From an uncultured Anaerolineae bacterium (lineage in GTDB: Bacteria; Chloroflexota; Anaerolineae; JACIWP01), in the NCBI GenBank assembly GCA_938049385.1, contig CALIBQ010000012.1:74131-138130 (forward strand): a stretch of 64,000 nucleotides of DNA, given 5' to 3'. Under the pieces are notes generated by a model, which was not told the origin of the DNA, did not search any database, and saw only the letters and a list, made by a program, of their open reading frames with translations. Both the position numbers and the translations under genes were made by a program. Shown in pieces: positions 9,206 through 44,372 of the stretch; position 1 is the stretch's first letter; the number at the start of each line of letters is the position of its first letter.

Positions 9206-9234
9206 TATCCTCCTCCTGGCAGAGGGAAGCACCC

Positions 9235-10890: not shown

Positions 10891-11571
10891 TTATTCAGGT
10901 TCAATATCGCGAGTGTTGTAGAGCTGGCGCAGTTCGGCGTTGGAAAGCGATTTTAGGCGCTGGATATCCTGGTCGTAGAGGCCGGCCTCGATCTCCTGCA
11001 CGCGCTTGGCCAGGTGCTGGGCGCGCGGGGCGATGTATCTGCCGTACAGCCGGCGGGCCAGGATGAAGATATTGTACTGCGCCTCCTCCGCCGGACAGCG
11101 CGAGACACACATGCCGCACATGATGCAGTCGAAGGATTTGTCGGCCACGCCGGCGATGTCCCCGCGCATGGCGCGCGCCATAATGTCTTTGACATCCAGC
11201 TCCTGCGGGCAGACCTTGGTGCAGGTCCCACAGCCAAGACAGCGCAGTAGCTCCGGATACAGCGAGACCAGCGTCCCAAAGGTGGGCTGTAGTTGGGTGA
11301 TATCGTACTGGGCGCGCGGGGCCGGGTAGAAGGGGATCTGCGCCAGGTACATCCCCGGCTCGACGACCGTCTGACAGGCCAGCCCGACGCGCAGGCGGTA
11401 ATCGCCGGCCAGGCGGTACACCGTGGCGCAGGCGCCGCAGAAGCCGGCGCGGCACCCCACGCCCCGCACCAGACGGTAGCCGGCATACTCCATTGCCTTC
11501 ATGATGGTCAGCCCGGGCGGGACATCATAGCGCTTGCCCATGATATAGACGGGAACCAGCTCCTCAGCCAT
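10891..11571 (-). CDS. SdhB/FrdB-like iron-sulfur subunit (2Fe-2S + 4Fe-4S ferredoxin domains)
   Basis: CRAGFCGAC (plant-type 2Fe-2S), CLGCGTCTKVCP and CIMCGMCVSRCP cluster motifs; GGGAGGAG RBS; stop overlaps the RBS of the next gene. Confidence 0.8.
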   Translation of the reverse strand: MAEELVPVYIMGKRYDVPPGLTIMKAMEYAGYRLVRGVGCRAGFCGACATVYRLAGDYRLRVGLACQTVVEPGMYLAQIPFYPAPRAQYDITQLQPTFGTLVSLYPELLRCLGCGTCTKVCPQELDVKDIMARAMRGDIAGVADKSFDCIMCGMCVSRCPAEEAQYNIFILARRLYGRYIAPRAQHLAKRVQEIEAGLYDQDIQRLKSLSNAELRQLYNTRDIEPE

Positions 11572-11595: not shown

Positions 11596-12708
11596 TTATT
11601 TCCCCAAATCCGTCAGCTCATCCTCGCGAAAAGCGGCCAGCGGCAGTTCCTCTTCCAGACTGCGGCCGGCCTCATAGTTGAACAGCGCCTGCACCGACTG
11701 CGCCACCGAGCGGAACAAGGTCGCCACCGGCAGGCGGTTTGGACAGGCGCTCTCGCACAGCCCGCACCCCACACACGAAGTCGCCATGTGATTCAATCGG
11801 GTGATGTGGAACAGCAGTGTATCGGTGGGCATGCGGATGACGCCCCGGCGCTCCGCCCAGCGGAAGTACTGCTCCGGCTCATGGTCGAAGGTCGGGGTGC
11901 GGAAGATGCACTCCTTGCAGTAGCAGATGGGGCAGGCCACCATGCAGTTGTGACAGCGGATACAGGTGGCGAAGCGTTCGGCCAGCCGGCGTAAGTCCGG
12001 CACTTCCGTCCGCCAGGCGGCAAACGCAGTATCCCGCTCCGCAGTGCGCCGCGCCCGCACCTGTTCCAGGACCTCCTGCCGGCGCGCCGGCACATCCGCC
12101 GGCGGCAGTTCCACCGGCAGGGGCTCCTTGCTCTCCACCAGCACCTGCCGCGGGAAATCCAGCCCGATCAGGCCGATGCGGATGTCGGCGTTGGCCGCCG
12201 TCGGATATTCGCACATGCGGCAGGCACTGCGCAGGGCACAGCCGTCCGCCGGCAGTGCCTCCCCCTGGGCCGCGCCCCGCCACAGCTCCGCCGGCTGTTT
12301 GCCGGCACGCACCAGGGCGGCATAGTCCACCACCTCATAGGTGCCCAGGCAGTCCACCGCGATGGTGCGCACATGCTCCAGCGTGGCCTGATGCAGTTTG
12401 GTCAGCTCGATGAGGGCGCGCAGTTCGCAGGGGCGGAGCCAGACGCCCACTCGCCGGCCGGTGTCCATGACGGTCAGCCGGCCGGCCATGGTAGCCATAT
12501 TGTGGGACATCACCGGCGCCAGCGGCTCGCAGGCTTCCAGCGCCTCAGGCGATTCCACCAGCGCCGGCATAACTGCCTCGTCGCCGGCCAGCCGGCAGGG
12601 CACCAGCAGGGCATCCACATATCCCGAGGTCAGCAGTTCCGCCAGGAATTTCCGCAGGGCGCCGGCCGCGTCTTCCCCTTCTACGGGCAACCAGGCTTGT
12701 ATCGTCAT
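11596..12708 (-). CDS. Fe-S/flavin oxidoreductase, FrhB-like (coenzyme F420 hydrogenase/dehydrogenase beta-subunit family) with C-terminal 2x[4Fe-4S] ferredoxin domain
   Basis: C-terminal CIRCHNCMVACP and CVGCGLCESACP; N-terminal ~220 aa resemble the FrhB/FdhB/AsrA-type flavin-binding module (tentative). Confidence 0.6.
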   Translation of the reverse strand: MTIQAWLPVEGEDAAGALRKFLAELLTSGYVDALLVPCRLAGDEAVMPALVESPEALEACEPLAPVMSHNMATMAGRLTVMDTGRRVGVWLRPCELRALIELTKLHQATLEHVRTIAVDCLGTYEVVDYAALVRAGKQPAELWRGAAQGEALPADGCALRSACRMCEYPTAANADIRIGLIGLDFPRQVLVESKEPLPVELPPADVPARRQEVLEQVRARRTAERDTAFAAWRTEVPDLRRLAERFATCIRCHNCMVACPICYCKECIFRTPTFDHEPEQYFRWAERRGVIRMPTDTLLFHITRLNHMATSCVGCGLCESACPNRLPVATLFRSVAQSVQALFNYEAGRSLEEELPLAAFREDELTDLGK

Positions 12709-12739: not shown

Positions 12740-13162
12740 TCAGCTCATGGGCAGTTCGCGCATGGGGTTAGGACCCAGCCGGCGGAGGTGCTCCACCATC
12801 TCAGTAACTGTGTCGGCAAAGCGCTGGCCCTCGCTGGCGCTGATCCATCTCAGCCAGACCCGCTGGGGGTCAAAGCCCAGCCCGGCCAAAATGGTGTGCA
12901 AGATGGCGATGCGCCGGCGGGCCTTGTAGTTGCCGCTCTGATAGTGGCAGTCGCCGGGATGACACCCACCGATAAGCACCCCATCTGCGCCCTCCAGCAG
13001 GGCTTTGGAGACATAGACCGGGTCCAGGGCGCCGGTGCACATCAGCCGGATGACGCGCACGTTGGGCGGATACTGCAGGCGCGAGGTGCCGGCCAGGTCC
13101 GCCGCTGTGTAGGTGCACCAATTGCACAAGAATGCCACGATGCGCGGCTCAAAATCCGCCAT
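12740..13162 (-). CDS. mvhD: MvhD-like (methyl-viologen-reducing hydrogenase delta subunit family) Fe-S protein
   Basis: RIVAFLCNWCTY…RLMCTG…GGCHPGDCHYQSGN is the MvhD/FlpD signature; start chosen at MADFEPR (GGAGGGG RBS); the listed ORF extends to 13357. Confidence 0.75.
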   Translation of the reverse strand: MADFEPRIVAFLCNWCTYTAADLAGTSRLQYPPNVRVIRLMCTGALDPVYVSKALLEGADGVLIGGCHPGDCHYQSGNYKARRRIAILHTILAGLGFDPQRVWLRWISASEGQRFADTVTEMVEHLRRLGPNPMRELPMS

Positions 13163-13176
13163 ATCCCCTCCCCGGG

Positions 13177-13824
13177 TCAGGTTTCGCGAATATCCAGTAT
13201 CTTCAGCACCGCTGGCTGTAGGGCTTTCTCCAGCTCTTCGATGCCCACGTCTGCTACTTTCATCAGGATTTGTCGGGTCGCCGGGTCCTCGCCCATGAAC
13301 GTCCCCAGGCTGACGATGTTGCCGCCGACGCCGGCGATGATCTCGGCCAGCCGGCACAGTTCACCCTTCTGGTCCAGGATGAGCACCGCGGCGCGCACCC
13401 CATGCTCCCAACCGCCCAGCAGTTCCAGGAAGGTGCGGAACAGGTCGGTTTCGGTGATGATGCCGATAAGCTTGCCGATGTCGTCCACCACCGGCAGGCC
13501 GCCGATCTTATGCTGTACCATCAATCGCGCGGCCTCTTCAATGGTGTTGGACTCCCGCACGGTGATGACATCGCTGGTCATCACATCCTTCACGGTGATG
13601 CGCGTCAGCAGGTACTGCATCTCGTAAAGGCTCAGGGTGGTCGCCGGCGAGGGCGCGGCGTACAGCAAATCCTTTTCCGATACAATGCCGACAAGCCGGC
13701 CGTTCTCATCCACAATCGGCAGACGGCGCACTCGTTTCTCGCGCATCAACCGCAGTGCCTCCGGCAGAGGCAGGTCGGGCGAGACGGCCACAGGCTGGCG
13801 CGACATGCGTTCCGCGACTAGCAT
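13177..13824 (-). CDS. CBS-domain pair protein with C-terminal ACT-like domain
   Basis: Two CBS motifs (…RRLPIVDENGRLVGIVSEKDLL; …GGLPVVDDIGKLIGIITETDLF); tandem paralog of the next gene. Confidence 0.8.
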   Translation of the reverse strand: MLVAERMSRQPVAVSPDLPLPEALRLMREKRVRRLPIVDENGRLVGIVSEKDLLYAAPSPATTLSLYEMQYLLTRITVKDVMTSDVITVRESNTIEEAARLMVQHKIGGLPVVDDIGKLIGIITETDLFRTFLELLGGWEHGVRAAVLILDQKGELCRLAEIIAGVGGNIVSLGTFMGEDPATRQILMKVADVGIEELEKALQPAVLKILDIRET

Positions 13825-13829
13825 CTGTC

Positions 13830-14549
13830 TCACTCCTTTCCAGCCGGCTCGGCTTCGCCAGGGGCTTCGGCGCGGCCGACCGCTTCCGCCGGCGCGCACT
13901 CCCGGATGTCCAGCAGGACGAATCCCCGTTCCTGTACGGCCCGTTCGGCGATCGCCCGCACCTGCTCCAGCGGCACCTCGGCGATGCGCAGGGTGAGCTG
14001 GCGCGTGCCGGGCCGTGGGCCGTGAAACTCGCCGGCGCTGAGGATATTCCCGCCGGCGGCCGCAATGTGCCGGCAGAGATAGGCGATCAGGCCCTTTTCG
14101 TCGGGGATGAGCATGGAAAGCCGCACCGCCGGCACTGGGGTGTCCAGCACTTCCAGGAACACCCGGAAGATATCGGTCTCGGTGATAATGCCCACCAGCT
14201 CCCCCTGGCTGAGCACCGGCAGAGCGTCCAGCTTGTGCTCCACCATCAGCCGGGCCGCTTCTTCCAGCGGGGCGTCGGCGTCCACGGTGATGGGGTTTTC
14301 GGTCATGATGCTGGCGATTTTCACCTGGGCCAGTTGATACAGCATCTCATGCAGGGTGATGGCCGCGGTAGGGGAAGGCGACACCAGGAGCAGGTCGTGC
14401 TCGGCCACAAAGCCCACCAGCCTGCCGGCATAATCCTGGACCGGCAGGTGATGCACCCCTTTCTCATGCATGATGTAGAAGGCGTCCTCCACCGAGGCCG
14501 TCGGCAGGATGGTCACCGGGTTGGGTGTCATATAGTGACGGACTAACAT
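13830..14549 (-). CDS. CBS-domain pair protein with C-terminal ACT-like domain (tandem paralog)
   Basis: HHLPVQDYAGRLVGFVAEHDLL and DALPVLSQGELVGIITETDIF CBS motifs; overlaps the end of the giant HdrA gene. Confidence 0.8.
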   Translation of the reverse strand: MLVRHYMTPNPVTILPTASVEDAFYIMHEKGVHHLPVQDYAGRLVGFVAEHDLLLVSPSPTAAITLHEMLYQLAQVKIASIMTENPITVDADAPLEEAARLMVEHKLDALPVLSQGELVGIITETDIFRVFLEVLDTPVPAVRLSMLIPDEKGLIAYLCRHIAAAGGNILSAGEFHGPRPGTRQLTLRIAEVPLEQVRAIAERAVQERGFVLLDIRECAPAEAVGRAEAPGEAEPAGKE

Positions 14550-17669: not shown

Positions 17670-18233
17670 TCAGAACTCACCGCGGTGGTCGGTGAGGTAC
17701 ATCACCAGCACCGCCATATCATACGTCTCCCCGTCATGCGTGATGAAATAATCGCGGTGCTGGTACTCCAGCTTGAAGCCCATTTCCTCGAAGGCGCGGA
17801 TGACCTTGGGCTGGGTGACCGCCACCTCCGCGATGACCTGCTGAAGCCCCATCATACGGGCGATATCGATTTGGGAGCGGATCATGGCGGTGCCGATGCC
17901 GCGCCGGCGGAACTCTTTGTCGAGATAAATATGGATCCAGGCAATGTGCCGTGTGTAATTTTCCCCCACGAATAATGTGGACAGCCCCACAATGCGCTCA
18001 TTCACCAGCGCGATGAGGGGAAAGGTGCGGGAATAATTGATGTTTTTGCACCACTGCGTGATGGAATCGGGCGTGGAAATATCAAAGCGGAAATATTCCT
18101 TGTCCTCCGGGCTGACGCGCGATAGCAAATCCACCAGCTTCTCGGCATCGTTGGCCATCAGCGGGCGGAAGAGCACCCGCGGCCCATCCTTCAGGATTTC
18201 GATGTGGCGGTAGTTCAACAATCGGTCTAACAT
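17670..18233 (-). CDS. GNAT-family N-acetyltransferase embedded in the hdr operon
   Basis: RRRGIGTAMIR acetyl-CoA binding motif; GGGGAGG RBS before ATG 18233. Confidence 0.8.
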   Translation of the reverse strand: MLDRLLNYRHIEILKDGPRVLFRPLMANDAEKLVDLLSRVSPEDKEYFRFDISTPDSITQWCKNINYSRTFPLIALVNERIVGLSTLFVGENYTRHIAWIHIYLDKEFRRRGIGTAMIRSQIDIARMMGLQQVIAEVAVTQPKVIRAFEEMGFKLEYQHRDYFITHDGETYDMAVLVMYLTDHRGEF

Positions 18234-18331
18234 GTCTGCCTCCCCTGGCCTCTTCATGCTCTGCCGTGGTATGACGCCTTCGCCGCGTTGTGCAAATTAT
18301 ACTGCGAGACAGGCAGGGCGCAACTCCCCCG

Positions 18332-19195
18332 TTATGATAACAACCCCAGCCGGCGCAGAAGGGGGCGCGGGTCCACGATGTGCCGGCCAAATAGGCCAGT
18401 CACTTCATCCAATCCCAGCGCCAGGCCCAGCAGTTCCGTAACGTAAAAGACTGGCATTGGCTGGGGACGTCGGCCCTGCCGGCCGTCCAGGTTCGCCTGG
18501 CAGAGGGGGCAGGCGGTCACGATGCAGTTGGCGCCGGCGTCCTCCGCCGCGCTGACCAGCCGGCCCACCAACCGCGCCACAATGTCCCCCCGGTTCAGGG
18601 TCATGCTGGCCCCGCAACAGTCCGTGGCATAGGTCCAGCGGCTTGGTTCCGCCCCCAGCAGTTCCAGCAGGCGGTCCAGCTTGACCGGGTGCTCGGTGTC
18701 GTCCCACGCGCCGGCGATCTGCGGCGGACGCAGGAGCAGACAGCCGTAGTAGCTCACCGGGCGCAGGCCAGTCAGCGGTTTGCGCAGATGGGCGCGTAGT
18801 TCCTCCGGCGGGAAATCGGAGGTCAGGATATCGAGCAGGGCGCGCGGCCTGGCCTGGCCGGCGTACTCCCTGCCGATGACCTGTTCCATCTGCTGGCGGA
18901 AGGCCTCATCCTCCCGCAGGCGGCGGTCGGCGCTGGAGAGTCGGCCGTAGCAGGCGGCGCAGGGGATGGCAATATCGCGGCCCAGCGGCTGTGCCAGCAG
19001 GATGTTGCGTGCCGGCAGGGCATCCGCCAGCTCCCCGCCCAGGCTGTGCGCGGACGAAGCCCCACAGCAATTCCAATCCTCGATCTCGACCAGTTCCACC
19101 CCCAGCGCCCGGCACACGGCCCGCGTGGAGACGCCGTACTCCAGACCGGTGGAGTGCAGGGTACAGCCAGGGTAGAAGGCATAGGAGCGGCTCAT
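18332..19195 (-). CDS. hdrB: Heterodisulfide reductase subunit B-like (two CCG domains), copy 2
   Basis: CCG-domain cysteine patterns (FYPGCTL, WNCCGAS, AACYGRL, YYGCLL, DCCGAS, ACPLCQ). Confidence 0.85.
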   Translation of the reverse strand: MSRSYAFYPGCTLHSTGLEYGVSTRAVCRALGVELVEIEDWNCCGASSAHSLGGELADALPARNILLAQPLGRDIAIPCAACYGRLSSADRRLREDEAFRQQMEQVIGREYAGQARPRALLDILTSDFPPEELRAHLRKPLTGLRPVSYYGCLLLRPPQIAGAWDDTEHPVKLDRLLELLGAEPSRWTYATDCCGASMTLNRGDIVARLVGRLVSAAEDAGANCIVTACPLCQANLDGRQGRRPQPMPVFYVTELLGLALGLDEVTGLFGRHIVDPRPLLRRLGLLS

Positions 19196-19758
19196 TCTCG
19201 CCCCTCCGGTGTTTCAGCGGCATGGGCGCCGGCGGCCTCGAACAGGCGTGCGATCTCCTGCCGGCGGCGGATAACTTGAGGGAGCGGCGGCAGTTTGCGC
19301 GCCAGCAGGAGCCGGGCACCCAGGTCCAAGTTGGACAGCAGGTCGAGGGAGCGCAGTTTGTACTCCACGATCATGGTGATCTCGTGCACCCGGCCGAAGC
19401 GCCGCAGGTTGTTCAGGAAGGCGCGGTGGAATTGGTATATCGCCGGCGCGCCCACCCGTACCCCTTCCTCCGCCGCCATCTGGCGCAGGGCGTCGTTGAT
19501 GCGCCCCACACAAATCCCGTTGGGACAGCGGGTGCCGCAGGTCTCGCACCCGACGCACATCCAGATGGCCTGGCTGGAAAGGAGCGCACGGCGTTCGCCC
19601 ATCTGCACCATATGCACGATTTGCGCCGGGTCATAGTCCATGACGAAGGCGGTGGGACAGCCGGCAGTGCACTTGCGGCACTGGTAGCATGTCGCGATGG
19701 GCTGACCGCTCCGCTCCGCCACGATGTCCATGAAGCGCCAATCTATCGGACTGCTCAT
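19192..19758 (-). CDS. hdrC: Heterodisulfide reductase subunit C-like (2x[4Fe-4S]), copy 2
   Basis: CYQCRKCTAGCP and CVGCETCGTRCP; ATGA start/stop overlap with the upstream hdrA. Confidence 0.8.
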   Translation of the reverse strand: MSSPIDWRFMDIVAERSGQPIATCYQCRKCTAGCPTAFVMDYDPAQIVHMVQMGERRALLSSQAIWMCVGCETCGTRCPNGICVGRINDALRQMAAEEGVRVGAPAIYQFHRAFLNNLRRFGRVHEITMIVEYKLRSLDLLSNLDLGARLLLARKLPPLPQVIRRRQEIARLFEAAGAHAAETPEGRE

Positions 19759-21512
19759 GCGCCCTCCTGCGCCTTCGCCGGCGCGAACAGCACATCCACC
19801 ATGGCGAGCACCTGTTCGGGGGTGTAGTTGCGCAGTTTGCTGGCCTTGTTCGGGCAGACCGTGGCGCAGGCACCGCATCCCTGGCACAGCGCGGCGTTGA
19901 CCGTCACCAGGGGCTTCCAGGGATGGGGCCGGCGGGCCTCGTAGGGACAGGCCGGCACGCAGAGCTGGCAGGCGGAGCACAGCTCCGGGTCTACCCAGGC
20001 GATGGTCGGCTCCTGCACCAGTTCATGGCGCGAGAAGAGGGAGAGCACCTTGGCGGCAGCCGCGCTGGCCTGGGAGAGGGTTTCGGGAATATCCTTCGGG
20101 CCCTGTGCCGCGCCGGCCAGGTAAATGCCGGCGGTCAGGCTCTCCACCGGCCGCAGTTTGGGATGCGCCTCATTGAAAAAGCCGTGCGCATCGGTGCCCA
20201 CCCGCAGGCGCTGGGCCAGGTCACGCGCATCTGCTCGCGGCACCACCGCCGTCGCCAGCACCACCAGGTCCGCGGCGATCTCCACCTGCTGGCCGCTCAA
20301 TGTATCGGCTCCCCAGACGATGACCTTATCGCCGTCGCGGAATATCTTTGATACCTTGCCGCGCAGGTACAGCACGCGCTCCTCTTCCATAGCGGCCTGG
20401 ACGAATTCCTCGGCGCCCTTGCCGCCGGAGCGGATGTCAATATAGAAGACATAGGCCTGGCCGTCAGGAGACTGCCGGCAGAACAGCCGCGCCTGCTTGG
20501 CGGTGTACATACAGCATATCTTGGAGCAGTAGGGCATGGCGTGTTCGGGGTCGCGCGAGCCGGCACACTGCACGAAAACCACCTCTTTGGGCGGCCGGCC
20601 GTCGGAGGGCCGCAGTACCCGCCCACCGGTGGGGCCATCTGGACGCAGGAGAGCCTCCATCTCCAGGCCGGAGATGACGTCGGGGACAGCGCCGGCGCCG
20701 TACTCGGGGAGCTGTTTCATGGGATACAGGTCGAAGCCGGTGGCCACGACGATGGCGCCGACGCTTGCCTCCTGCACCTGGTCCTCGCCCCGCCGGCGGA
20801 TGCGCACCGTGAAGTTCCCCACGTAGCCGTTGAGCGATTCCACCTCGCTCTCTGTCAGGACGGTGATCTCGGGGCGTGCGCGCAAGGCATCCAGCTTCTG
20901 CGCCAGCAGGTCGCCGGCCGATTCGAAATTGAGATAGGTGCCGGAGAGCTGGGCCATGCGTCCGCCCAGTTGCGCCTCGCGCTCCACCAGCAGGACGGGG
21001 AAGCCGGCTTCGGCGATGTCCAGCGCCGCCTGGATGCCGGCAATGCCCCCGCCGATAACCAGGGCACGGCGCACCACCGGCAGGGTGAATGGGAGCAGTT
21101 CCTCATCGTAGCGCACCTTCTCGATGATGGTGCGGATGACCTCGATAGCCTTGCGGGTGGCGGCGTCCGGGTCCTTGGCGTGCACCCAGGAGACCTGCTC
21201 GCGGATGTTGGCGATCTCGACGCGATAGGGGTTCAGGCCGGCGCTCTCGGCGTTGCGCCGGAAGGTGGCCTCGTGCATGGTGGGGGAACAGGCGGCCACG
21301 ACGATGCCGTCCAGCTTCTCCTCGGCGATCTTGCGGCGGATCAGCTCCTGTCCCGGTTCGGAGCACATGTACTTGTAGTCCAGGGCCACCAGCACCGCCG
21401 GCGCATCCTTGAACGCGTCCAGCACCTGCGGGATGTCCACGGTGCCGGCGATGTTCAGACCGCAGTGGCAGACGAACAGACCGATACGGTGGGCCTTAGT
21501 TTTCGCCGGCAT
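19755..21512 (-). CDS. hdrA: Heterodisulfide reductase subunit A-like, full-length (N-terminal CHCG Cys domain + FAD + ferredoxin domains)
   Basis: N-terminal RIGLFVCHCGLNIAG; GGGIAGIQAA; VQCAGSRDPEHAMPYCSKICC; CSACQLCVPACP and CQGCGACATVCP. Confidence 0.85.
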   Translation of the reverse strand: MPAKTKAHRIGLFVCHCGLNIAGTVDIPQVLDAFKDAPAVLVALDYKYMCSEPGQELIRRKIAEEKLDGIVVAACSPTMHEATFRRNAESAGLNPYRVEIANIREQVSWVHAKDPDAATRKAIEVIRTIIEKVRYDEELLPFTLPVVRRALVIGGGIAGIQAALDIAEAGFPVLLVEREAQLGGRMAQLSGTYLNFESAGDLLAQKLDALRARPEITVLTESEVESLNGYVGNFTVRIRRRGEDQVQEASVGAIVVATGFDLYPMKQLPEYGAGAVPDVISGLEMEALLRPDGPTGGRVLRPSDGRPPKEVVFVQCAGSRDPEHAMPYCSKICCMYTAKQARLFCRQSPDGQAYVFYIDIRSGGKGAEEFVQAAMEEERVLYLRGKVSKIFRDGDKVIVWGADTLSGQQVEIAADLVVLATAVVPRADARDLAQRLRVGTDAHGFFNEAHPKLRPVESLTAGIYLAGAAQGPKDIPETLSQASAAAAKVLSLFSRHELVQEPTIAWVDPELCSACQLCVPACPYEARRPHPWKPLVTVNAALCQGCGACATVCPNKASKLRNYTPEQVLAMVDVLFAPAKAQEGA

Positions 21513-22848
21513 GGACCACCTCCGGAACAGCTTGCCAGCGGGCGAAGAGGGCGAGCACCTTGGCGGCCGCGGCGCTGGCCTGCGCGACGGTTTCGGGGAT
21601 ATCGCGCGGGCCGACCGCCGCGCCGGCGATGAACACTCCCGGCCGGCGGGTGCTCACCGGCTCCAGGTTGGGGTTGACCTCCTGCAGGAAGCCGTGCGCA
21701 TCCACGTCAATGCCCAGCAGTTCTGCCAGCCGGCGCGTCTCCGGCCGCGGCACGATGGCCGTTGCCAGCACTACCATGTCCGCGGCGATCTCCACCTGCT
21801 GGCCGCTGAGGGTATCCGCCCCCCAAACCACCACTTTGTCGCCGTCGCGGAAAATCTTGGAGACCTTGCCGCGCAGGTACAGCACGCGGTCCTCCTCGAC
21901 GGCGCGCTGGAGAAACTCCTCATAGCGCCGGCCGGCGGTGCGGATGTCAATGTAAAAGACGTAGGCCTGGCCGTTCGGCACCCGATGGCGGTACAGCATG
22001 GCGTGCTTGGCGGTGTACATACAGCAGATGGTAGAGCAGTAGGGCATGGCCTTTTCCGGGTCGCGCGAGCCGGCACACTGCACGAAAACCACTTCTTTCG
22101 GCTCGCGCCCGTCGGAGGGCCGGCGGATTTTGCCGGCGGTGGGGCCGGAGGCGGACAGCAGTCGCTCGAAGGCCAGGCCGCTGATGACGTCCGGCACCTG
22201 GCCGGCGCCGTACTCGCCCAGGCGCGTTACATCGTACAGGTCATAGCCGGTGGCCAGGATGACGGCGCCGGCCTCAATCTCGAACAGCGCATCCTCCTGG
22301 TCGTAGGCGATAGCACCGGTAGGACAGAACTTCTCGCAGACGCGGCATTTGCCCTGGGTGAAGAAGCGGCAGCGCGCTTTATCAATGATCGGCTTGTTGG
22401 GCACGGCCTGCGGGGAAAGGGTGTAGATGGCCTTGCGCCGGCCCAGGCCCATATCAAAATCGGACTCCACACGCGTCGGGCATTTCTCGATGCACACGCC
22501 GCAGCCGGTGCAGATATCCCAGTTGACGCCGGCCGCGCGCCGGCGGATGCGCGCCCGGAAATGTCCGACCTCCCCCTGGATGTCCTCGACCTCGGCGTAG
22601 GTGATGAGATGGATGTTGGGATGGTGGCCAACCTCAACGGTGCGCGGGGTCAGGATGCACTGGGCGCAGTCCAGGGTGGGGAAGGTCTCCGATAACTGCG
22701 CCATGTGCCCGCCGATGGAGGGGAGCTTCTCCACCAGGGTAACCTCGTAGCCGGAATTGGCGATATCCAGCGCGGCCTGCATGCCGGCGATGCCGGCGCC
22801 GATGATGAGGGCATGCGGGTTCGGCGCACCAGTGTGCCGGGTCATCAT
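21496..22848 (-). CDS. hdrA: Heterodisulfide reductase subunit A-like paralog lacking the N-terminal Cys domain
   Basis: Starts directly at IIGAGIAGMQAA; inserted ferredoxin CTGCGVCIEKCP, CRVCEKFCP; VQCAGSRDPEKAMPYCSTICC; long stretches ~85% nt-identical to 19755-21512. Confidence 0.85.
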   Translation of the reverse strand: MMTRHTGAPNPHALIIGAGIAGMQAALDIANSGYEVTLVEKLPSIGGHMAQLSETFPTLDCAQCILTPRTVEVGHHPNIHLITYAEVEDIQGEVGHFRARIRRRAAGVNWDICTGCGVCIEKCPTRVESDFDMGLGRRKAIYTLSPQAVPNKPIIDKARCRFFTQGKCRVCEKFCPTGAIAYDQEDALFEIEAGAVILATGYDLYDVTRLGEYGAGQVPDVISGLAFERLLSASGPTAGKIRRPSDGREPKEVVFVQCAGSRDPEKAMPYCSTICCMYTAKHAMLYRHRVPNGQAYVFYIDIRTAGRRYEEFLQRAVEEDRVLYLRGKVSKIFRDGDKVVVWGADTLSGQQVEIAADMVVLATAIVPRPETRRLAELLGIDVDAHGFLQEVNPNLEPVSTRRPGVFIAGAAVGPRDIPETVAQASAAAAKVLALFARWQAVPEVVHAGEN

Positions 22849-23747
22849 GGGGCTTTCACCTCTCCCAGAACGCCGGCCTGCGTCAGCACCGGTCGGGGGT
22901 CCACATAATGCTGTTCGAAGCCGTAGCCGCTGGTGTCCAGGCCGAAGGCCAGGCCCATCAACTGGGTGAAGTACAGCACCGGCAGGGGTCGATACGAGGC
23001 ATACTGCTGGCGCAGGCGGGCCTGGAGCCAGTCCAGGTTGAACTGGCACAGCGGGCAGGCGGTGGCAAGCACATGCGCGCCGGCCCGCTCTGCGGCCGAA
23101 AGGATGCGGTACGACATGGGCATGGAGGCCTCAGGGGACTTCACCGTCAGGTATGCCCCACAGCACTCGCCGCGATGGGGGTAGTCCACCACCTCGGCGC
23201 CCAGCGCCGCCAGGAGCTGGTCCATGATGTCCGGGCGCTCCGGGTCATCCAGGGCGATCTCGGCCGCCGGCCGCAGGAGCATACATCCGTAATAGGCGGC
23301 CGCACGCAGACCCCGCAGGCCCGGCACGGCGCACTGTCGGATGGCTTCCAGGCCGATATCATGCACGAAAATGTCCAGCAGATGCCGCACCTCGACCTGG
23401 CCGGCATACGGCTGGGGCCGCTCCAGGAAGGCGTTCAATTTTTCCAGCGTCTCAGGGTTATTGCGGAGGAAGTGGTTGGTGCGGCGCAGGACGTTGAAGC
23501 AGGTGGCACAGGCCACAGCCAGGGTATCGCCGCCGGCCTCGGCCGTGCTGACCAGGTTGCGCGCCGGGCCGGCCAGGTCCAGCACGTTGTCGGTGGAGAG
23601 GGGGAAGGTCGCCCCACAGCAGTTCCATTCGGGCAGGGTGACCAGCTCCACCCCCAGCGCGCCGGCGGCATCCTTCGCGGAGCGGTTGAAGCCCACCGCC
23701 TTGGTCTCCAGCGTACAGCCGGGAAAGTAGAAATAGCGCATCTTCAC
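22845..23747 (-). CDS. hdrB: Heterodisulfide reductase subunit B-like (two CCG domains), copy 1
   Basis: FPGCTL, WNCCGAT, ACATCF, YYGCML, ECCGAY, ACPLCQ; ATGA overlap with the downstream hdrA. Confidence 0.85.
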   Translation of the reverse strand: MKMRYFYFPGCTLETKAVGFNRSAKDAAGALGVELVTLPEWNCCGATFPLSTDNVLDLAGPARNLVSTAEAGGDTLAVACATCFNVLRRTNHFLRNNPETLEKLNAFLERPQPYAGQVEVRHLLDIFVHDIGLEAIRQCAVPGLRGLRAAAYYGCMLLRPAAEIALDDPERPDIMDQLLAALGAEVVDYPHRGECCGAYLTVKSPEASMPMSYRILSAAERAGAHVLATACPLCQFNLDWLQARLRQQYASYRPLPVLYFTQLMGLAFGLDTSGYGFEQHYVDPRPVLTQAGVLGEVKAP

Positions 23748-23777
23748 GCTCCAGTGCGTGTAATGATCTGCTCGGCG

Positions 23778-24185
23778 TCAGGCCGTGTATTTGCGGAAGC
23801 CGGCAATGAATGCCTGCTGAGGGAACTCGGCCAGCGCCTGCACATCCAGCCGGGCGATCTCCAGATGATCGCCTCGCTTCTGCATGGCCAGCTCCCGCAG
23901 GGCCTCCATCAGCCGCGGCAGGTCTACCCCTTTGGGACAGCGCGCGTAGCAGGTCTGGCAGGCCGCGCAGTACCAGATGGTCTGGCTTTCCAACGCGCGC
24001 TCGACCTGGCCCAATTGGACCAGCCGGATGATCTGGTTGGGCAGGAGGTCCATGACCTCCGCGGCCGGACAGCCGGCGGAGCACTTGCCGCAGTGATAGC
24101 AGGCCATCACATCCTGGCCGCTGACCTCCTCAATGCGCCGCACCCATTCGGAACGCACCTGCTCGACAGAAATTGTCACGCGCAT
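23778..24185 (-). CDS. hdrC: Heterodisulfide reductase subunit C-like (2x[4Fe-4S]), copy 1
   Basis: CYHCGKCSAGCP and CAACQTCYARCP. Confidence 0.8.
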   Translation of the reverse strand: MRVTISVEQVRSEWVRRIEEVSGQDVMACYHCGKCSAGCPAAEVMDLLPNQIIRLVQLGQVERALESQTIWYCAACQTCYARCPKGVDLPRLMEALRELAMQKRGDHLEIARLDVQALAEFPQQAFIAGFRKYTA

Positions 24186-24188
24186 GGG

Positions 24189-24785
24189 TTACACCTTCTG
24201 CAGGAGTTTGCGGTACTTTTCCCGCTCCGCAACATAGGCATCGCCGCCGTAGATGTCGTTGATGACAATAGCCGGGAAGTCCACCACTGTCAGTTCTTGG
24301 ATCGCCTCCGGCCCCAGGTCTTCATAGGCGATGACGCGGGCGGCGACGATACTGCGGGAGATGAGCGCGCCGGCGCCGCCGGTAGCGGCGAAGTAGACGC
24401 ACTGATAGCGCTTCATCGCCTCGATGACCTCGGGGGCACGTTCCCCTTTGCCGATCATGCCCTTGATGCCGGCGGCCATCAGGCGCGGGGCATAGGCGTC
24501 CATGCGGTAGCTGGTGGTGGGGCCGGCGGAACCAATGGGGCGGCCGGGCTTGGCCGGCGAAGGGCCCATATAATAAACGACCTGGCCGGCGGGGTCAAAG
24601 GGAAGCGGTTCGCCGCGTTCCAGGGCCTCGACCATGCGCTTGTGCGCCGCGTCGCGCGCCACATAAATGATGCCGTTGATGAGAACCTTGTCGCCGGCGC
24701 GCAGGGGCGTGATCTGCTCCAGGGTGAGGGGTGTAGTCAGGCGAATTCCTGTCTTTTCCATGACCGTGTTCCTTTCGTCGCTCAC
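24189..24785 (-). CDS. Class I fumarate hydratase beta subunit (Fe-S hydro-lyase, tartrate/fumarate family, beta region)
   Basis: 198 aa with the FumA C-terminal/TtdB-like catalytic domain (IKGMIGKGER, ATGGAGAL). Confidence 0.8.
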   Translation of the reverse strand: MSDERNTVMEKTGIRLTTPLTLEQITPLRAGDKVLINGIIYVARDAAHKRMVEALERGEPLPFDPAGQVVYYMGPSPAKPGRPIGSAGPTTSYRMDAYAPRLMAAGIKGMIGKGERAPEVIEAMKRYQCVYFAATGGAGALISRSIVAARVIAYEDLGPEAIQELTVVDFPAIVINDIYGGDAYVAEREKYRKLLQKV

Positions 24786-25627
24786 AAGATAGCTTCTTTA
24801 TGGCGCGCCGCATGGCACTGGATGTTCACCGCCACCGGCATGCTGGCCAGGTGGCATGGATGGGTCTCCACATGCACGGCCAAGGCCGTTGTACGGCCGC
24901 CCAATCCCTGCGGGCCGATGCCGGTGCGGTTGATGCGCTCCAGCAGTTCCCGCTCCAGGTCTGCCACCTCTGGCTCTGGATGGTGTTCGCCCACTGGGCG
25001 GAGCAGGGCGTGTTTCGCCAGCGCCATGGCCTTATCGGCGCTCCCGCCGATGCCAACCCCGACGATGATAGGCGGGCAGGGGTTGGCGCCGGCCTTTTCC
25101 ACGCTTGCCACGACGAAGTCCACGATGCCCTGCCGGCCGGCCGCCGGCGGCATCATCGAGAGGAAGCTCATGTTCTCACTGCCGCCGCCCTTGGGCAGGA
25201 CGATCAGCTTGAGCTGGTCTCCGGGAACAAGCCGCACGTGGATCACTGCCGGCGTGTTATCGCGGGTGTTCTTGCGCGCCCCAAAAGGCGGGTACACCAT
25301 GGACTTACGCAGATAGCCCTCGGTATAGCCCTGACGCACCCCCTCATTGACGGCATCCTCAAACGCACCACCAACAATATGTACATCCTGACCCACTTCA
25401 GCGAAGACCACGGTCAGGCCAGTGTCCTGACAGATGGGGACCTCCTCCTGTCGGGCAATGGCGGCGTTCTCCAGGATTTGGTCGAGGATTTCCCGCCCCA
25501 GCGGTGAAATCTCCTGTTCGCGAGCCTTCTGCAGGGCTTGGACAACGTCCTCTCCCAGGAAGTAATTGGCCTCCATGCAGAGGCGCTTGACCGTCTGTAC
25601 GATGTCTTGAAAGGAGATCTCTTTCAT
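24782..25627 (-). CDS. Class I fumarate hydratase alpha subunit (Fe-S hydro-lyase alpha region)
   Basis: FumA N-terminal/TtdA-like domain with cluster cysteines (…PICQDTG…, …NPCPP…, …QCH…); start chosen at MKEISFQ; first gene of the long minus-strand operon. Confidence 0.8.
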   Translation of the reverse strand: MKEISFQDIVQTVKRLCMEANYFLGEDVVQALQKAREQEISPLGREILDQILENAAIARQEEVPICQDTGLTVVFAEVGQDVHIVGGAFEDAVNEGVRQGYTEGYLRKSMVYPPFGARKNTRDNTPAVIHVRLVPGDQLKLIVLPKGGGSENMSFLSMMPPAAGRQGIVDFVVASVEKAGANPCPPIIVGVGIGGSADKAMALAKHALLRPVGEHHPEPEVADLERELLERINRTGIGPQGLGGRTTALAVHVETHPCHLASMPVAVNIQCHAARHKEAIL

Positions 25628-25758: not shown

Positions 25759-25948
25759 TGCGGAAACCCATGTCCTTCCTATGGGTAAACCTCGTTTCCC
25801 GGCACGACCTGCATGCCAACCGACAGCGATTATGGGCCGCATGGATGGTTCATCTTCACCAATAAAAATTGTTCAATATGCTGTCAATGCCAGCCTGTGC
25901 TCCATTATAATACGAGCAAGGCTTTTGTCCAAATGTGAAACAGATTGC

Positions 25949-25977
25949 TTGAACTCTCCAAACTTTTGTGATATAAT
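25949..25977 (+). promoter_or_regulatory. Sigma70-like promoter (TTGAAC-N17-TGaTATAAT, extended -10) for the ABC-transporter operon
   Basis: Consensus-like hexamers in an AT-rich island; gives a ~165-nt structured 5' UTR before the SBP start at 26148. Confidence 0.45.
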
Positions 25978-26147
25978 GGCGTTGGCCGATGAAACATTGA
26001 CGTTTCCTCGCGCGGCGTGCGGTTCCCTTGCGGCCCATTCCTCATCATGACAGTCCGAGAGACAGGTTGTACTGTCTGTTGCGGGTTACTGGCATGGCGG
26101 CCATGCCAATATCATCATTCCCCGAGAGAGAGGGAGGAGGTCTAACC

Positions 26148-27278: not shown

Positions 27279-27374
27279 CCCTTTCCCAAGCTGTTACAAC
27301 AGGTTGACCCTGCAGATGAGGTGCCAGGCCGGCCGGCCTGGCACCTCAAAACCGCCACGCAACAGGAGTCATGG

Positions 27375-28259: not shown

Positions 28260-28284
28260 CCCTGGGAGGGAGGATATACCGAGG

Positions 28285-29160: not shown

Positions 29161-29175
29161 GGAGGGACCTGCGAC

Positions 29176-32199: not shown

Positions 32200-32231
32200 C
32201 CTTCCCATTGACAGAGGAAAAGGAGGGAGAG

Positions 32232-42530: not shown

Positions 42531-44372
<1,842 letters not shown>

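Follow-up and report, generated by a model that had tools for sequence, protein, structure and literature searches.

Two tandem hdrA genes flanked by two hdrC-hdrB pairs in an uncultured Anaerolineae bacterium raise the question of which electron-transfer system the locus encodes, and whether its two HdrA proteins are a recent duplicate pair or complementary parts of one enzyme. We addressed it in the window, the whole 64,000-nucleotide stretch of DNA analysed here. The order hdrC-hdrB-hdrA-hdrA'-hdrC'-hdrB' given in an earlier note on this DNA holds, with all six genes on the minus strand between 24185 and 18332.

Operon layout and gene content

The six hdr genes form the middle of a ~16.5-kb operon comprising fumarase αβ at its start, HdrC1B1, HdrAa/HdrAb, HdrC2B2, a 1020-aa fused double HdrA (HdrAA), MvhD, an FdhB-like protein and, at its far end, a TfrAB-like soluble fumarate reductase. 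Overlaps of 4–17 nt at the B1/Aa, Aa/Ab, Ab/C2 and C2/B2 junctions point to translational coupling.

25949-25977, plus strand: divergent promoter-like site for an ABC-transporter operon (pattern match only)
25904..25931, minus: promoter-like site on the operon side (11 of 12 consensus matches; pattern match only)
24782..25627, minus: fumarate hydratase alpha, class I Fe-S (Pfam Fumerase 398 bits; NCBIfam NF004885 420 bits, cut-off 276); the ORF reaches 25702, and the ATG at 25627 gives 281 aa (orthologs 281-283 aa)
24189..24785, minus: fumarate hydratase beta (Pfam Fumerase_C 187 bits; NF005310 269 bits, cut-off 238), overlapping alpha by 4 nt
23778..24185, minus: HdrC1, short HdrC-like protein with 2x[4Fe-4S], 135 aa (Fer4_8/Fer4_17; TIGR03290 HdrC 72 bits, below cut-off; 8 Cys in two CxxCxxCxxxC motifs)
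22845..23747, minus: HdrB1 (Pfam CCG x2 at residues 11-83 and 155-234, both motifs complete, ligands of noncubane [4Fe-4S] clusters; top PDB matches are methanogen HdrB, 1e-46 to 1e-41)
21496..22848, minus: HdrAa, 450 aa (aligned with residues 152-571 of 8rvu HdrA, E = 5e-132)
19755..21512, minus: HdrAb, 585 aa (aligned with 5odc_A in two blocks, residues 239-312 skipped), sharing a 17-nt overlap with the HdrAa gene
19192..19758, minus: HdrC2, full-length HdrC-like protein, 188 aa (Pfam and NCBIfam; eight ligand Cys)
18332..19195, minus: HdrB2 (two CCG motifs, both complete)
17670..18257, minus: GNAT acetyltransferase inserted in the operon (Pfam Acetyltransf_1), outside the conserved set: not at this position in L003, elsewhere in L004
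14543..17605, minus: HdrAA, fused double HdrA (NCBIfam and Pfam), 1020 aa in the public call (P0121, 100% identical); the ORF reaches 17680
13830..14549, minus: CBS-pair protein 1 (Pfam CBS x2; start uncertain, the ORF reaching 14579)
13177..13899, minus: CBS-pair and ACT-like protein 2 (Pfam CBS x2 and TTHA0829-like ACT; start uncertain), with an ortholog at the same place in L003 and L084-L086
12740..13162, minus: MvhD/FlpD-type [2Fe-2S] electron-transfer subunit (Pfam FlpD 180 bits; NCBIfam VhuD 146 bits)
11596..12708, minus: FdhB/FrhB-like flavin/Fe-S protein, 370 aa (PDB 8rvu_E FdhB, 2.7e-21 over residues 14-356; 9t1s_M, 1.7e-23; weak Pfam FrhB_FdhB_C match)
10891..11571, minus: FrdB-like Fe-S subunit (Pfam Fer2 and Fer4; NCBIfam TfrB N-terminal match)
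9235..10866, minus: FrdA-like flavoprotein (Pfam FAD_binding_2 243 bits; best NCBIfam match TfrA, 358.6 bits, cut-off 718)

Complementary domain architecture of HdrAa and HdrAb

The two HdrA proteins had been described as one full-length and one N-terminally truncated copy, a description that does not hold in detail: neither is full-length, and each lacks what the other keeps. HdrAa combines the FAD/thioredoxin-reductase core and the core [4Fe-4S] motif with the Cys197-type CxxC (C56, C59) and an inserted 2x[4Fe-4S] ferredoxin domain, but is missing the N-terminal domain as well as the C-terminal ferredoxin domain. HdrAb also has the FAD core and the core [4Fe-4S] motif, together with the N-terminal Cys domain (C15, C17, C50, C75) and a 2x[4Fe-4S] ferredoxin domain at the C-terminus; it has no inserted ferredoxin domain, and Ser/Asp take the place of the Cys197 motif. 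This complementarity was established from a Cys table, domain BLAST and PDB alignments. Equivalents of the flavin residues E356/K409 and the core-cluster Cys are retained in both proteins; both are intact, with every ligand of the retained domains still present, and public records hold identical 450-aa and 585-aa gene calls.

The tandem (HdrA5/6, 12/13) and fused (HdrA3/4) HdrA of ANME archaea follow the same pattern: one copy keeps the N-terminal cluster and lacks Cys197, the other is the reverse, the C-terminal ferredoxin domain is likewise complementary, and a heterodimer breaking the two-fold symmetry has been proposed (Chadwick et al. 2022, PMC9012536). Because the domains of HdrAa and HdrAb are complementary in this way, they most likely form an asymmetric heterodimer. 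The present pair is bacterial rather than archaeal, its N-domain copy also lacks the inserted ferredoxin domain, its fused protein places the Cys197-type module first whereas Chadwick et al. describe the N-domain module first, and its context is fumarase and fumarate reductase instead of methane metabolism. The type II HdrA of methane-metabolizing archaea is a related known system (PMC12054007).

Origin of the pair and the sHdr question

Pairwise nucleotide and amino acid alignment confirmed the paralogy of the two hdrA genes: BLASTP aligns their products at E = 8e-133 with an overall identity of 50%, rising to ~69% in the C-terminal half of the flavin domain, and the peptide block quoted earlier, from RPSDGR to CCMYTAK, is found in both. 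Long nucleotide stretches of ~85% identity had also been claimed; high identity was recovered, but the example offered (20541-20640 against 22046-22145) is 5 nt out of register. Correctly paired, 20541-20640 and 22051-22150 share 77% identity, the most similar window of 100 nt (20491-20590 against 22001-22100) is 90% identical, and 159 such windows lie at or above 80%, compared with ~25–43% for unrelated sequence of the same composition.

The earlier note read these blocks as an in-place duplication followed by domain loss. A duplication origin may stand as an ancestral event, whereas a local, recent event and a one-sided loss do not: orthologous HdrAa and HdrAb fall into separate clades across Chloroflexota (bootstrap 92% and 89%, respectively), and the copies of the window are sisters in only 0–1% of replicates. 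As judged from this phylogeny, the pair is ancient and no local duplication is involved. As an ancestral scenario, tandem duplication within a C1B1-A-C2B2 cluster is reasonable: the Bacillota relative L074 carries a single canonical HdrA there. The history includes a mosaic signal, since trees of coreC only join some partner pairs (L073 58%, L039 70%).

That the locus is of the sHdr sulfur-oxidation type, or that a local duplication happened recently and one copy is decaying, is exceedingly improbable, even though the flanking C/B pairs recall shdrC1B1A-hyp-C2B2, nucleotide blocks reach 90% per 100 nt and identical residues of the pair use the same codon in 70.5% of cases against 51% expected. 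The codon excess also occurs between anciently diverged HdrA modules (0.63), and the intact copies have orthologs across phyla. Both HdrA score 444–522 bits against methanogen bifurcating HdrA and only 166–178 bits against sHdrA (6TJR), a short FAD and one-cluster protein of 349 aa. No GcvH/LbpA, DsrE or TusA domain was found by Pfam in 53 of the 56 called genes of the window (all but three ABC-transporter ORFs at 27321-29928), and no sHdrH accompanies the locus. The earlier view that lipoate-binding protein, DsrE and TusA genes do not accompany the locus, and that a sHdr role is unsupported, was borne out, and we rejected the sHdr reading.

Conservation of the operon and probable assignment of HdrC2B2

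Orthologous HdrAa/HdrAb pairs are spread across Anaerolineae/Thermoflexia and reach into other phyla; the best 120 HdrAb homologs listed, mostly from Anaerolineae MAGs, are all 565–596 aa long and at least 63% identical. Across loci L001-L083, the two module types, '-cI-' and 'N--F', numbered 111 and 112, respectively. The operon order recurs in Chloroflexota (L003, L073, L004) and outside the phylum (L005, L009, L010, L011, L063, L039, L074), and the operon is also present in Thermodesulfobacteriota/'Deltaproteobacteria' MAGs. Reduced loci L085 and L086 contain only FumAB, C1B1, Aa/Ab, a CBS protein and FrdBA, while L084 adds MvhD and the FdhB-like protein. The earlier proposal that the substrate is linked to flanking fumarase and Sdh genes is upheld as to the link, given synteny kept across several phyla, but not as to adjacency: the 'Sdh' genes are FrdB (11571..10891) and FrdA (10866..9235), 8.5–9 kb downstream, where this operon ends.

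Module 1 of HdrAA is Aa-like and module 2 Ab-like, joined in the window by an N-domain-like linker lacking all four Cys. In relatives, C2B2 was found only together with a downstream fused HdrAA, also in loci without the Aa/Ab pair, and is missing from the three relatives without HdrAA. Of 93 non-edge HdrAA genes, 29 have an HdrC-HdrB pair immediately upstream, some of them in loci without Fum/Frd. Since the reduced loci retain just fumarase, C1B1, Aa/Ab and FrdBA, this co-occurrence suggests that C2B2 probably serves HdrAA. The sHdr-like order C1-B1-A-x-C2-B2 pointed out earlier is real; its symmetry is probably superficial, as C2B2 tracks HdrAA.

Putative fumarate reductase and probable electron input

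Both fumarase subunits score above curated NCBIfam cut-offs. FrdA scores under every one, and L-aspartate oxidase is nearly as similar, which counts against a fumarate reductase. Its dicarboxylate-site His and Arg residues are kept: the HPT His, HY..GG His, HG.NRL Arg and catalytic Arg all have aligned counterparts in Sdh/Frd. In place of the covalent-FAD His of the SdhA 'AHT'/'SHT' motifs FrdA has Asn, and it carries an N-terminal extension of ~95 aa. FrdB, with one [2Fe-2S] motif and two of the form CxxCxxCxxxCP, looks like the N-terminal half of TfrB, for which PMC11223495 gives the same pattern of one [2Fe-2S] and two [4Fe-4S] motifs. The FdhB-like protein and MvhD resemble the subunits that deliver electrons to HdrA in solved Fdh-Hdr complexes, and the former is the probable electron-input subunit.

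Comparison with known systems

We found no paper in the literature describing this operon. The closest solved relatives of HdrAa, HdrAb and HdrB1 are the methanogenic HdrABC-MvhAGD and Fdh-Hdr complexes (PDB 5ODC, 7BKB, 8RVU), which share MvhD, FdhB-like input, CCG motifs, HdrC clusters and E356/K409 with the window. Canonical HdrA is, however, one 650-aa chain forming a homodimer with two full wirings, whereas these features are split here over two chains; unlike in the methanogen complexes, no catalytic subunit of hydrogenase or formate dehydrogenase is encoded, and CoM-S-S-CoB is unlikely to be the substrate.

Methanothermobacter TfrAB is, like FrdA/FrdB, soluble without membrane anchors, and TfrA is the best family of FrdA, although the scores lie below the family cut-offs. 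TfrB carries its own CCG domains, whereas the 226-aa FrdB has none and separate HdrB genes encode the CCG proteins. Tubeworm symbionts and Thioflavicoccus have rTCA gene clusters in which tfrAB is interspersed with flxABCD-hdrABC, and a complex feeding electrons directly to fumarate reductase has been proposed (Rubin-Blum et al. 2019, PMC6315080). That system shares the genetic linkage of a Tfr-like fumarate reductase to a bacterial Hdr; it has a Flx NADH-dehydrogenase input, a single HdrABC and an rTCA/ACL/OGOR context, whereas the window combines MvhD and FdhB-like input, a split HdrA pair with a fused double HdrA, and fumarase, with no rTCA genes. In the HdrABC/HdrL-MvhD clusters of sulfate reducers (Sfum_0819-0824) and in Moorella MetFV-HdrABC-MvhD, hdrCB is likewise followed by genes for a large double HdrA-like protein, for MvhD and for an FdhB-like Fe-S protein, comparable to the C2-B2-HdrAA-MvhD-FdhB-like segment, but their partners differ (DsrC-linked or methylene-THF reductase), and HdrL has NAD(P)H-binding domains, none of which were found here. 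The sHdr loci share two different HdrC/HdrB pairs flanking the flavoprotein gene(s).

Proposed mechanism and alternatives

Our best reading, to which as a whole we assign a probability of roughly 0.5, is an Hdr-type electron-bifurcating, quinone-independent fumarate reductase. Malate would be dehydrated to fumarate, which would serve as the high-potential acceptor driving ferredoxin reduction, with electrons from F420H2 or NAD(P)H entering via the FdhB-like protein and MvhD. The HdrAa/HdrAb heterodimer, served by HdrB1C1, would hold one complete bifurcation wiring where the canonical homodimer holds two: one N-domain/Cys197 cluster between the subunits, one exit on the ferredoxin side and one entry on the MvhD side. 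HdrAa/HdrAb form the core of the conserved operon, alongside fumarase and a soluble, anchor-less TfrAB-like enzyme that would be the physically coupled fumarate reductase; hdrC2-hdrB2 would most likely belong to the adjacent HdrAA, a second pseudo-heterodimer made of a single chain. The absence of MvhD and the FdhB-like gene from L085 and L086 counts against the proposed electron entry.

The six genes might instead encode one pseudo-symmetric unit, an A2(B1C1)(B2C2)-like heterohexamer as proposed for sHdr, with HdrB1C1 on one side of HdrAa/HdrAb, HdrB2C2 on the other and HdrAA separate. The C1-B1-Aa-Ab-C2-B2 order recurring in 10 loci, stop/start overlaps continuing through Ab/C2 and C2/B2, the core [4Fe-4S] leading to HdrC in both Aa and Ab, and the C1B1-A-C2B2 arrangement of L074 all suit this possibility. 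We nevertheless hold it doubtful: C2B2 is dispensable in L084, L085 and L086, where Aa/Ab occurs with C1B1 only; C2B2-type pairs directly precede HdrAA where Aa/Ab is absent (L012, L014, L024, L049, L055, L070, L071); and the heterodimer offers a single N-domain/Cys197 site and a single ferredoxin domain of each kind, inserted and C-terminal.

All four CCG motifs of HdrB1 and HdrB2 are intact, as in 46 of 47 orthologs, and therefore favour a real disulfide-type substrate at HdrB over a simple electron relay to FrdB. They also suit a separate Hdr and Tfr-like fumarate reductase between which a thiol/disulfide couple would diffuse, as in methanogens; here one HdrBC with FrdAB (a split thiol:fumarate reductase) would make the disulfide and the HdrA complex would re-reduce it while reducing ferredoxin. 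FrdB indeed looks like TfrB minus its CCG half, two HdrBC pairs are present, and PMC11223495 places the oxidation of CoM-SH and CoB-SH at the CCG part of methanogen TfrB. This arrangement is unlikely, as neither operon nor window contains a gene for a thiol cofactor or carrier protein (LbpA, DsrC/TusA-like) and the minimal clusters hold one HdrBC only, too few for both roles; CoM and CoB are not known to occur in Chloroflexota. Operation in reverse, as a confurcating succinate dehydrogenase in which reduced ferredoxin pulls succinate oxidation, might be needed by syntrophic oxidizers; flavin-based bifurcating enzymes are in principle reversible, fumarase fits both directions, and Thermodesulfobacteriota/'Deltaproteobacteria' MAGs share the operon. 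We consider it quite improbable, given that a non-covalent flavin, expected from the Asn of FrdA, supports fumarate reduction but succinate oxidation only poorly, and that the closest family, TfrA, reduces fumarate. If the bifurcating fumarate reductase is the correct reading, the operon would represent a candidate route by which anaerobic Chloroflexi might gain energy by reducing fumarate.

Operon organization and gene calls

Every gene of interest lies on the minus strand of the window (G+C content 65%), and identities were assigned by Pfam, NCBIfam and PDB sequence searches.

Features of the operon in window coordinates, in order of transcription, with the supporting evidence
25931..25904, minus, promoter-like site upstream of the fumarase gene (11/12 pattern matches)
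25627..24782, minus, fumarate hydratase alpha (Pfam/NCBIfam)
24785..24189, minus, fumarate hydratase beta (Pfam/NCBIfam)
24185..23778, minus, HdrC1 (Pfam/NCBIfam, Cys motifs)
23747..22845, minus, HdrB1 (Pfam/NCBIfam/PDB, CCG motifs)
22848..21496, minus, HdrAa, 450 aa (Pfam/NCBIfam/PDB)
21512..19755, minus, HdrAb, 585 aa (Pfam/NCBIfam/PDB)
19758..19192, minus, HdrC2 (Pfam/NCBIfam, Cys motifs)
19195..18332, minus, HdrB2 (Pfam/NCBIfam, CCG motifs)
18257..17670, minus, GNAT acetyltransferase, between HdrB2 and HdrAA
17605..14543, minus, HdrAA, fused double HdrA, 1020 aa
14549..13830 (ORF to 14579), minus, CBS-domain protein 1
about 13899..13177, minus, CBS-domain protein 2
13162..12740, minus, MvhD/FlpD (Pfam/NCBIfam)
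12708..11596, minus, FdhB/FrhB-like protein, 370 aa (PDB alignment)
11571..10891, minus, FrdB-like Fe-S protein, 226 aa (Pfam/NCBIfam)
10866..9235, minus, FrdA-like flavoprotein, 543 aa (Pfam/NCBIfam/PDB)

Adjacent genes overlap by 4–17 nt or are separated by gaps of <75 nt, a layout that makes the six-gene hdr block the middle third of one ~16.5-kb operon. A terminator scan returned sites no more numerous than in shuffled sequence. As called here, HdrAa, HdrAb and FrdA (450, 585 and 543 aa, respectively) are identical to public protein sequences, the near relatives of which are labelled as Anaerolineae MAGs.

Several genes in and around the operon vary in position or have less certain roles. 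The GNAT gene lies between HdrAb and HdrC2 in the Thermoflexia locus L004 and is missing from L003; it may serve either in regulatory acetylation or as a passenger. The two CBS-pair proteins between HdrAA and MvhD (13177–14579, minus), one with an ACT-like domain, have one or two counterparts at the same site in all Anaerolineae versions (L003, L084–L086), and none was seen in a BLAST map of the 'delta'-type operons; they may act as adenine-nucleotide or energy-charge sensors for the complex. The thyX gene for flavin-dependent thymidylate synthase (8585–9232, minus) starts 2 nt after the FrdA stop and is probably co-transcribed, though functionally unrelated. Divergent from the operon, on the plus strand, are a branched-chain-amino-acid-type ABC transporter (binding protein 26028–27278, ATPase 29947–30681) and, next to it, two tandem, uninterrupted full-length MttB-family methyltransferase genes (30745–32199 and 32208–33698), the products of which probably act on quaternary amines and belong to the non-pyrrolysine type. 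A glmS ribozyme (Rfam RF00234, 48.5 bits; 44416–44645, minus) lies upstream of glmS (42531–44372).

Complementary domain content of HdrAa and HdrAb

The C-B-A-A'-C'-B' gene order and the paralogous relation between the hdrA copies, both proposed in an earlier note made from the sequence alone, were confirmed (BLASTP E = 8e-133). The proteins share 50% identity overall; within the flavin domain, identity rises from ~45% in the N-terminal portion to ~69% over the C-terminal 230 residues. At the nucleotide level, the pairing quoted in that note was 5 nt out of register, as 20541–20640 pairs with 22051–22150 at 77%; identity peaks at 90% over 100 nt, and exact matches extend to 35 nt at most.

The description of one hdrA as full-length and the other as N-terminally truncated had to be revised, because PDB alignments and Cys columns reveal that each gene lacks some domains. 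HdrAa covers residues ~150–571 of the solved methanogen HdrA and nothing beyond, and HdrAb aligns with 5ODC chain A in two blocks that skip residues 239–312, the inserted ferredoxin domain. Comparison of Cys columns with canonical full-length relatives gave the following distribution.

Cluster ligands of HdrAa and HdrAb
CxxC pair including the Cys197 equivalent: HdrAa, yes (C56, C59); HdrAb, no (Ser/Asp at the Cys195/198 columns)
Inserted 2x[4Fe-4S] domain, 8 Cys: HdrAa, yes; HdrAb, no
Core cluster, 4 Cys: HdrAa, yes; HdrAb, yes
N-terminal domain, 4 Cys: HdrAa, no; HdrAb, yes (C15, C17, C50, C75)
C-terminal ferredoxin domain, 8 Cys: HdrAa, no; HdrAb, yes

Thus, neither chain holds all four parts of a canonical single-chain HdrA (N-domain, FAD core, inserted and C-terminal ferredoxin domains), and together they supply one copy of each accessory feature where the canonical homodimer has two. 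Both retain GxGxxG, as well as residues equivalent to E356 and K409; this residue pair serves to recognise flavin sites competent for bifurcation (PMC12054007).

Tandem HdrA genes have been reported in ANME archaea by Chadwick et al. 2022 (PMC9012536), with one copy carrying Cys197 and lacking the N-terminal domain and with complementary C-terminal ferredoxin domains. In a solved complex, the N-terminal cluster of one HdrA protomer is completed by Cys197 of the other, on which basis those authors proposed obligate heterodimers, and the same logic was noted for fused double HdrA proteins, including that of the Moorella MetFV-HdrABC-MvhD system (PMC9012536). A 2025 survey lists the fused form as type II HdrA, with no biochemical study (PMC12054007). 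The window encodes both forms, HdrAa/HdrAb being split and HdrAA fused. The split pair displays the N-domain/Cys197 split, the C-terminal ferredoxin split and the retained FAD-binding residues, and we regard it as a new bacterial member of the class described in ANME, with extra domain loss. HdrAa and HdrAb are predicted to form a physical heterodimer, in keeping with the 17-nt gene overlap and the conserved adjacency of the two module types in 21 loci.

Age and evolution of the pair

Phylogeny rejects a recent local duplication as the origin of the two genes. The best 120 HdrAb homologs listed are all 565–596 aa long and 63–95% identical, and the named ones come from Anaerolineae/Chloroflexi MAGs. 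Orthologous Aa/Ab pairs occur in the same operon in other Anaerolineales (L001, L003, L073) and Thermoflexia (L004) and, beyond Chloroflexota, in 'Deltaproteobacteria'/Thermodesulfobacteriota MAGs (L005, L009–L011), an unclassified bacterium (L039) and a MAG carrying a Pseudomonadota label (L063). The concatenated flavin core was used for neighbour-joining trees, which were built on short alignments (312 columns, 300 bootstraps); they recovered separate Chloroflexota Aa and Ab clades (92 and 89%, respectively) and placed all Ab sequences together in 76% of replicates, whereas the window Aa and Ab were sisters in 0–1%. Similarity between the window Aa and Ab (0.69) is slightly below that between orthologs (0.73 for window Aa against L003 Aa; 0.72 for window Ab against L001 Ab). 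Given the trees and these values, the blocks of high identity between the two genes are attributed to constraint on an old pair, not to recent copying.

Trees of the C-terminal core alone joined the partners in L073 (58%) and L039 (70%), though not in the window, a hint that Aa and Ab may now and then have undergone conversion in those two loci. In the window pair, the codon is also the same for 70.5% of identical residues, where 51% would be expected (p < 1e-4); anciently diverged controls were also raised (Aa against HdrAA module 1, 0.63, p = 0.0007; C1 against C2, 0.67), so this codon identity is not decisive for conversion.

A plausible series, read from extant operons, would lead from a single HdrA through Aa plus a near-full Ab to the complementary pair. 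In the corresponding operon of a Bacillota MAG (L074), C1B1 and C2B2 flank a single canonical full-length HdrA; the 'delta'-type operons combine Aa with an Ab that has the inserted ferredoxin domain without Cys197; and Chloroflexota Ab lacks the inserted domain too. Extended to the fused HdrAA, this series would be a clean natural example of a homodimer subfunctionalised into a presumably obligate heterodimer.

Some Chloroflexota carry a second Aa/Ab pair in the same operon (L073, 14561–18736; L004, 12985–17147), located between FrdB and either the FdhB-like gene (L073) or HdrAA (L004); C-terminal-core similarity of partners is 0.74 and 0.60 in these loci, against 0.43–0.53 across pairs. In L085 (9166–9947) and L086 (9440–9970), unrelated small ORFs break the Aa-Ab junction, comprising 173- and 176-aa ORFs that are mutually 89% identical, plus 55- and 84-aa ORFs. 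These have no recorded Pfam hit and no counterpart in the window; they look like insertions and may be selfish modules.

HdrB, HdrC and the fused HdrAA

HdrB1 and HdrB2 each contain two CX31-39CCX35-36CXXC motifs, and HdrC1 and HdrC2 each contain eight ligand Cys in two [4Fe-4S] motifs, as in canonical HdrABC. All scores against the curated NCBIfam HdrA, HdrB and HdrC models fell below cut-off; HdrB1 and HdrB2 matched methanogen HdrB at 187 and 145 bits and, almost as well, the CCG-type SdhE of methylmenaquinol:fumarate reductase at 160 and 138 bits.

The modules of HdrAA are ordered Aa-like, then Ab-like. In its N-domain-like linker (residues ~448–560; gene at 14543–17605, minus), the four cluster Cys are replaced by Gly, Ala, Ala and Ala, a loss common to the closest relatives (P0121–P0128, 51–100% identical), whereas more distant homologs (P0129, P0130, P0139, P0145 and that of L003) keep them. 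Module 1 still has the Cys197-type CxxC, and module 2 has Ala at the E356 equivalent and Arg at the K409 position. The inter-module cluster appears to be gone in this sublineage. Larger HdrAA-like proteins of ~1,460–1,530 aa occur in L074 (9839–14383), L034, L054, L058 and L071; that of L074 carries in module 1 a ~370-aa insertion between the inserted ferredoxin domain and the C-terminal core, which may be GltD/NfnB-like, as in 'type III' HdrA.

Proposed core and inserted modules of the operon

In a module census of the first 83 of 86 fetched loci, we counted 111 modules of the 'Cys197 + inserted ferredoxin domain' type and 112 of the 'N-domain + C-terminal ferredoxin domain' type, with 79 complementary pairs fused in a single chain and both types present as adjacent genes in 21 loci; as the sample was seeded with the fused HdrAA, these counts show recurrence, not frequency. 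Three further Anaerolineae loci (L084–L086) were found via HdrAb homologs instead. Two of them (L085, L086) are limited to fumarase alpha/beta, HdrC1, HdrB1, Aa, Ab, FrdB and FrdA along with a single CBS protein; in L084 this set is joined by MvhD, the FdhB-like protein and another CBS protein. HdrC2, HdrB2 and HdrAA are absent from all three. Elsewhere, an HdrC-HdrB pair lies immediately upstream of 29 of 93 non-edge HdrAA genes, including some in loci without fumarase, Frd or Aa/Ab, and MvhD lies downstream of HdrAA in 79/103.

On the strength of the reduced operons and of the C/B pairs found upstream of HdrAA elsewhere, we read the operon as a core (FumAB, HdrC1B1, HdrAa/Ab, FrdBA) with an inserted second Hdr module (HdrC2B2-HdrAA), and MvhD with the FdhB-like protein as the input module. 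This reading would assign one HdrBC to each asymmetric HdrA unit, split or fused, which fits the single N-domain/Cys197 site and the one inserted and one C-terminal ferredoxin domain per unit. Its main rival is a single C1B1-Aa/Ab-C2B2 heterohexamer, an arrangement that the gene order itself invites, with C/B pairs flanking the flavoproteins; C2B2, however, co-varies with the downstream HdrAA. The order also recalls the C1-B1-A-hyp-C2-B2 loci of sulfur oxidisers (sHdr), with a second HdrA as the middle gene here, but on our reading the mirror symmetry of the C/B pairs is probably coincidental.

An sHdr assignment was rejected on the flavoproteins, both of which score 444–522 bits against methanogen HdrA and only 166–178 bits against sHdrA (6TJR). 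The sHdrA type is about 340–350 aa long, with FAD and one [4Fe-4S] cluster and without ferredoxin or N-terminal domains, whereas HdrAa and HdrAb each carry an extra Fe-S domain. Pfam searches of 53 of the 56 called genes in the 64-kb window (all but three ABC-transporter ORFs at 27321–29928) found no sHdr accessory lbpA (GcvH-like), dsrE or tusA and no lipoate-maturation genes, in line with the earlier view that an sHdr role is unsupported. A Qmo-type complex was likewise rejected: the HdrC N-termini are weakly QmoC-like (54–59 bits against a cut-off of 300), and no QmoA or QmoB model is among the top NCBIfam hits.

The fumarate end and putative electron input

Both fumarase subunits score above curated NCBIfam cut-offs. 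The top NCBIfam match of FrdA is TfrA (358.6 bits, cut-off 718), with Sdh/Frd and NadB (L-aspartate oxidase) models at 216–298 bits. FrdA retains the dicarboxylate-site residues YHPT at 326, LHYQNGG (HYxxGG) and HGRNRL (HGxNRL), and its catalytic Arg aligns with the 'PRD' of SdhA and NadB; these site residues are common to L-aspartate oxidase too. At the covalent-FAD His position FrdA has Asn ('DANTMMAQGG' against 'KAHTVMAEGG' in 7d6v and 'RSHTGAAQGG' in 6lum). Attachment of 8-alpha-FAD to His is needed for efficient succinate oxidation, and a non-covalent flavin in Frd/Sdh favours fumarate reduction over succinate oxidation. Residues 1–95 of FrdA (gene at 9235–10866, minus) form an N-terminal extension that no Frd, Sdh, TfrA or NadB profile or PDB alignment covers, all matches starting at 91–98; ortholog lengths of 537–546 aa suggest that the extension is conserved, and it may serve to dock FrdA onto the Hdr part.

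FrdB combines a plant-type [2Fe-2S] motif with two CxxCxxCxxxCP motifs (Fer2 plus two Fer4), the cluster set reported for TfrB, but its 226 residues lack the fused C-terminal CCG domains of TfrB, which are the thiol-oxidation site of that enzyme; the CCG proteins are here separate, as HdrB1 and HdrB2. The operon encodes no membrane anchor for Frd. The whole of the 370-aa FdhB-like protein can be aligned with FdhB, which acts together with MvhD to supply HdrA in solved Fdh-Hdr complexes. As catalytic subunits of a hydrogenase or formate dehydrogenase are missing, the donor is likely to be a hydride carrier that diffuses freely, either F420H2 or NAD(P)H.

Proposed reaction and significance

To our knowledge, biochemical demonstrations of Hdr-type flavin-based bifurcation are almost confined to the methanogen heterodisulfide as the acceptor, and many bacterial Hdr-like clusters have no assigned substrate. 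The link to the flanking fumarase and fumarate reductase genes suspected from the sequence holds up, in that the Hdr genes sit between those for fumarase and for an anchor-less fumarate reductase in eleven or more of the loci fetched; these come from MAGs with at least four phylum-level labels and include the stripped-down eight- or nine-gene form. There is one precedent for genetic linkage of a Tfr-like fumarate reductase to bacterial Hdr: in the rTCA clusters of sulfur-oxidising Gammaproteobacteria, Rubin-Blum et al. 2019 observed tfrAB intermingled with flxABCD-hdrABC and proposed that the products share a complex (PMC6315080). In the full-text literature searched, which leaves out most subscription journals, no paper describes the present operon.

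We propose, with a probability of roughly one in three, that the core (fumarase, HdrC1B1, split HdrAa/HdrAb and soluble Tfr-like FrdBA) is an uncharacterised class of bifurcating enzyme in which fumarate replaces the heterodisulfide. Beyond domains, ligands, phylogeny and synteny, the operon functions that follow are predictions. Fumarase would convert malate to fumarate, and electrons would enter from the FdhB-like protein and MvhD at the C-terminal ferredoxin domain of HdrAb. Bifurcation would occur at one or the other flavin of the Aa/Ab heterodimer. The low-potential electron would reach ferredoxin by way of the cluster shared between the subunits (Ab N-domain plus Aa C56/C59) and then the inserted ferredoxin domain of HdrAa, and the high-potential electron would travel via the core cluster, HdrC1/HdrB1 and FrdB/FrdA to fumarate (E0' = +33 mV). 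A rival in which HdrB electrons pass through a thiol/disulfide instead of directly is kept alive by the CCG motifs, all intact in HdrB1 and HdrB2 and in 46/47 orthologs. Elsewhere in the window, an aldehyde:ferredoxin oxidoreductase gene (AFOR_N/AFOR_C; 60031–62025, plus) is consistent with ferredoxin-based anaerobic metabolism.

Bracketing of the Hdr genes by fumarase and an anchor-less fumarate reductase makes the substrate question testable. The proposed reaction is concrete, namely fumarate-dependent ferredoxin reduction, and ties an orphan bacterial Hdr family to an assayable acceptor. If the proposal is true, the asymmetric heterodimer would represent a minimal one-track bifurcating unit, and fermentative Anaerolineae, as well as the Thermodesulfobacteriota/'Deltaproteobacteria', Bacillota and Pseudomonadota-labelled MAGs, would gain a form of 'fumarate respiration' that needs neither quinones nor a membrane and produces reduced ferredoxin. 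It would also explain how fermentative Anaerolineae, which are abundant in digesters and sediments, could do without quinones in conserving energy from the reductive TCA branch.
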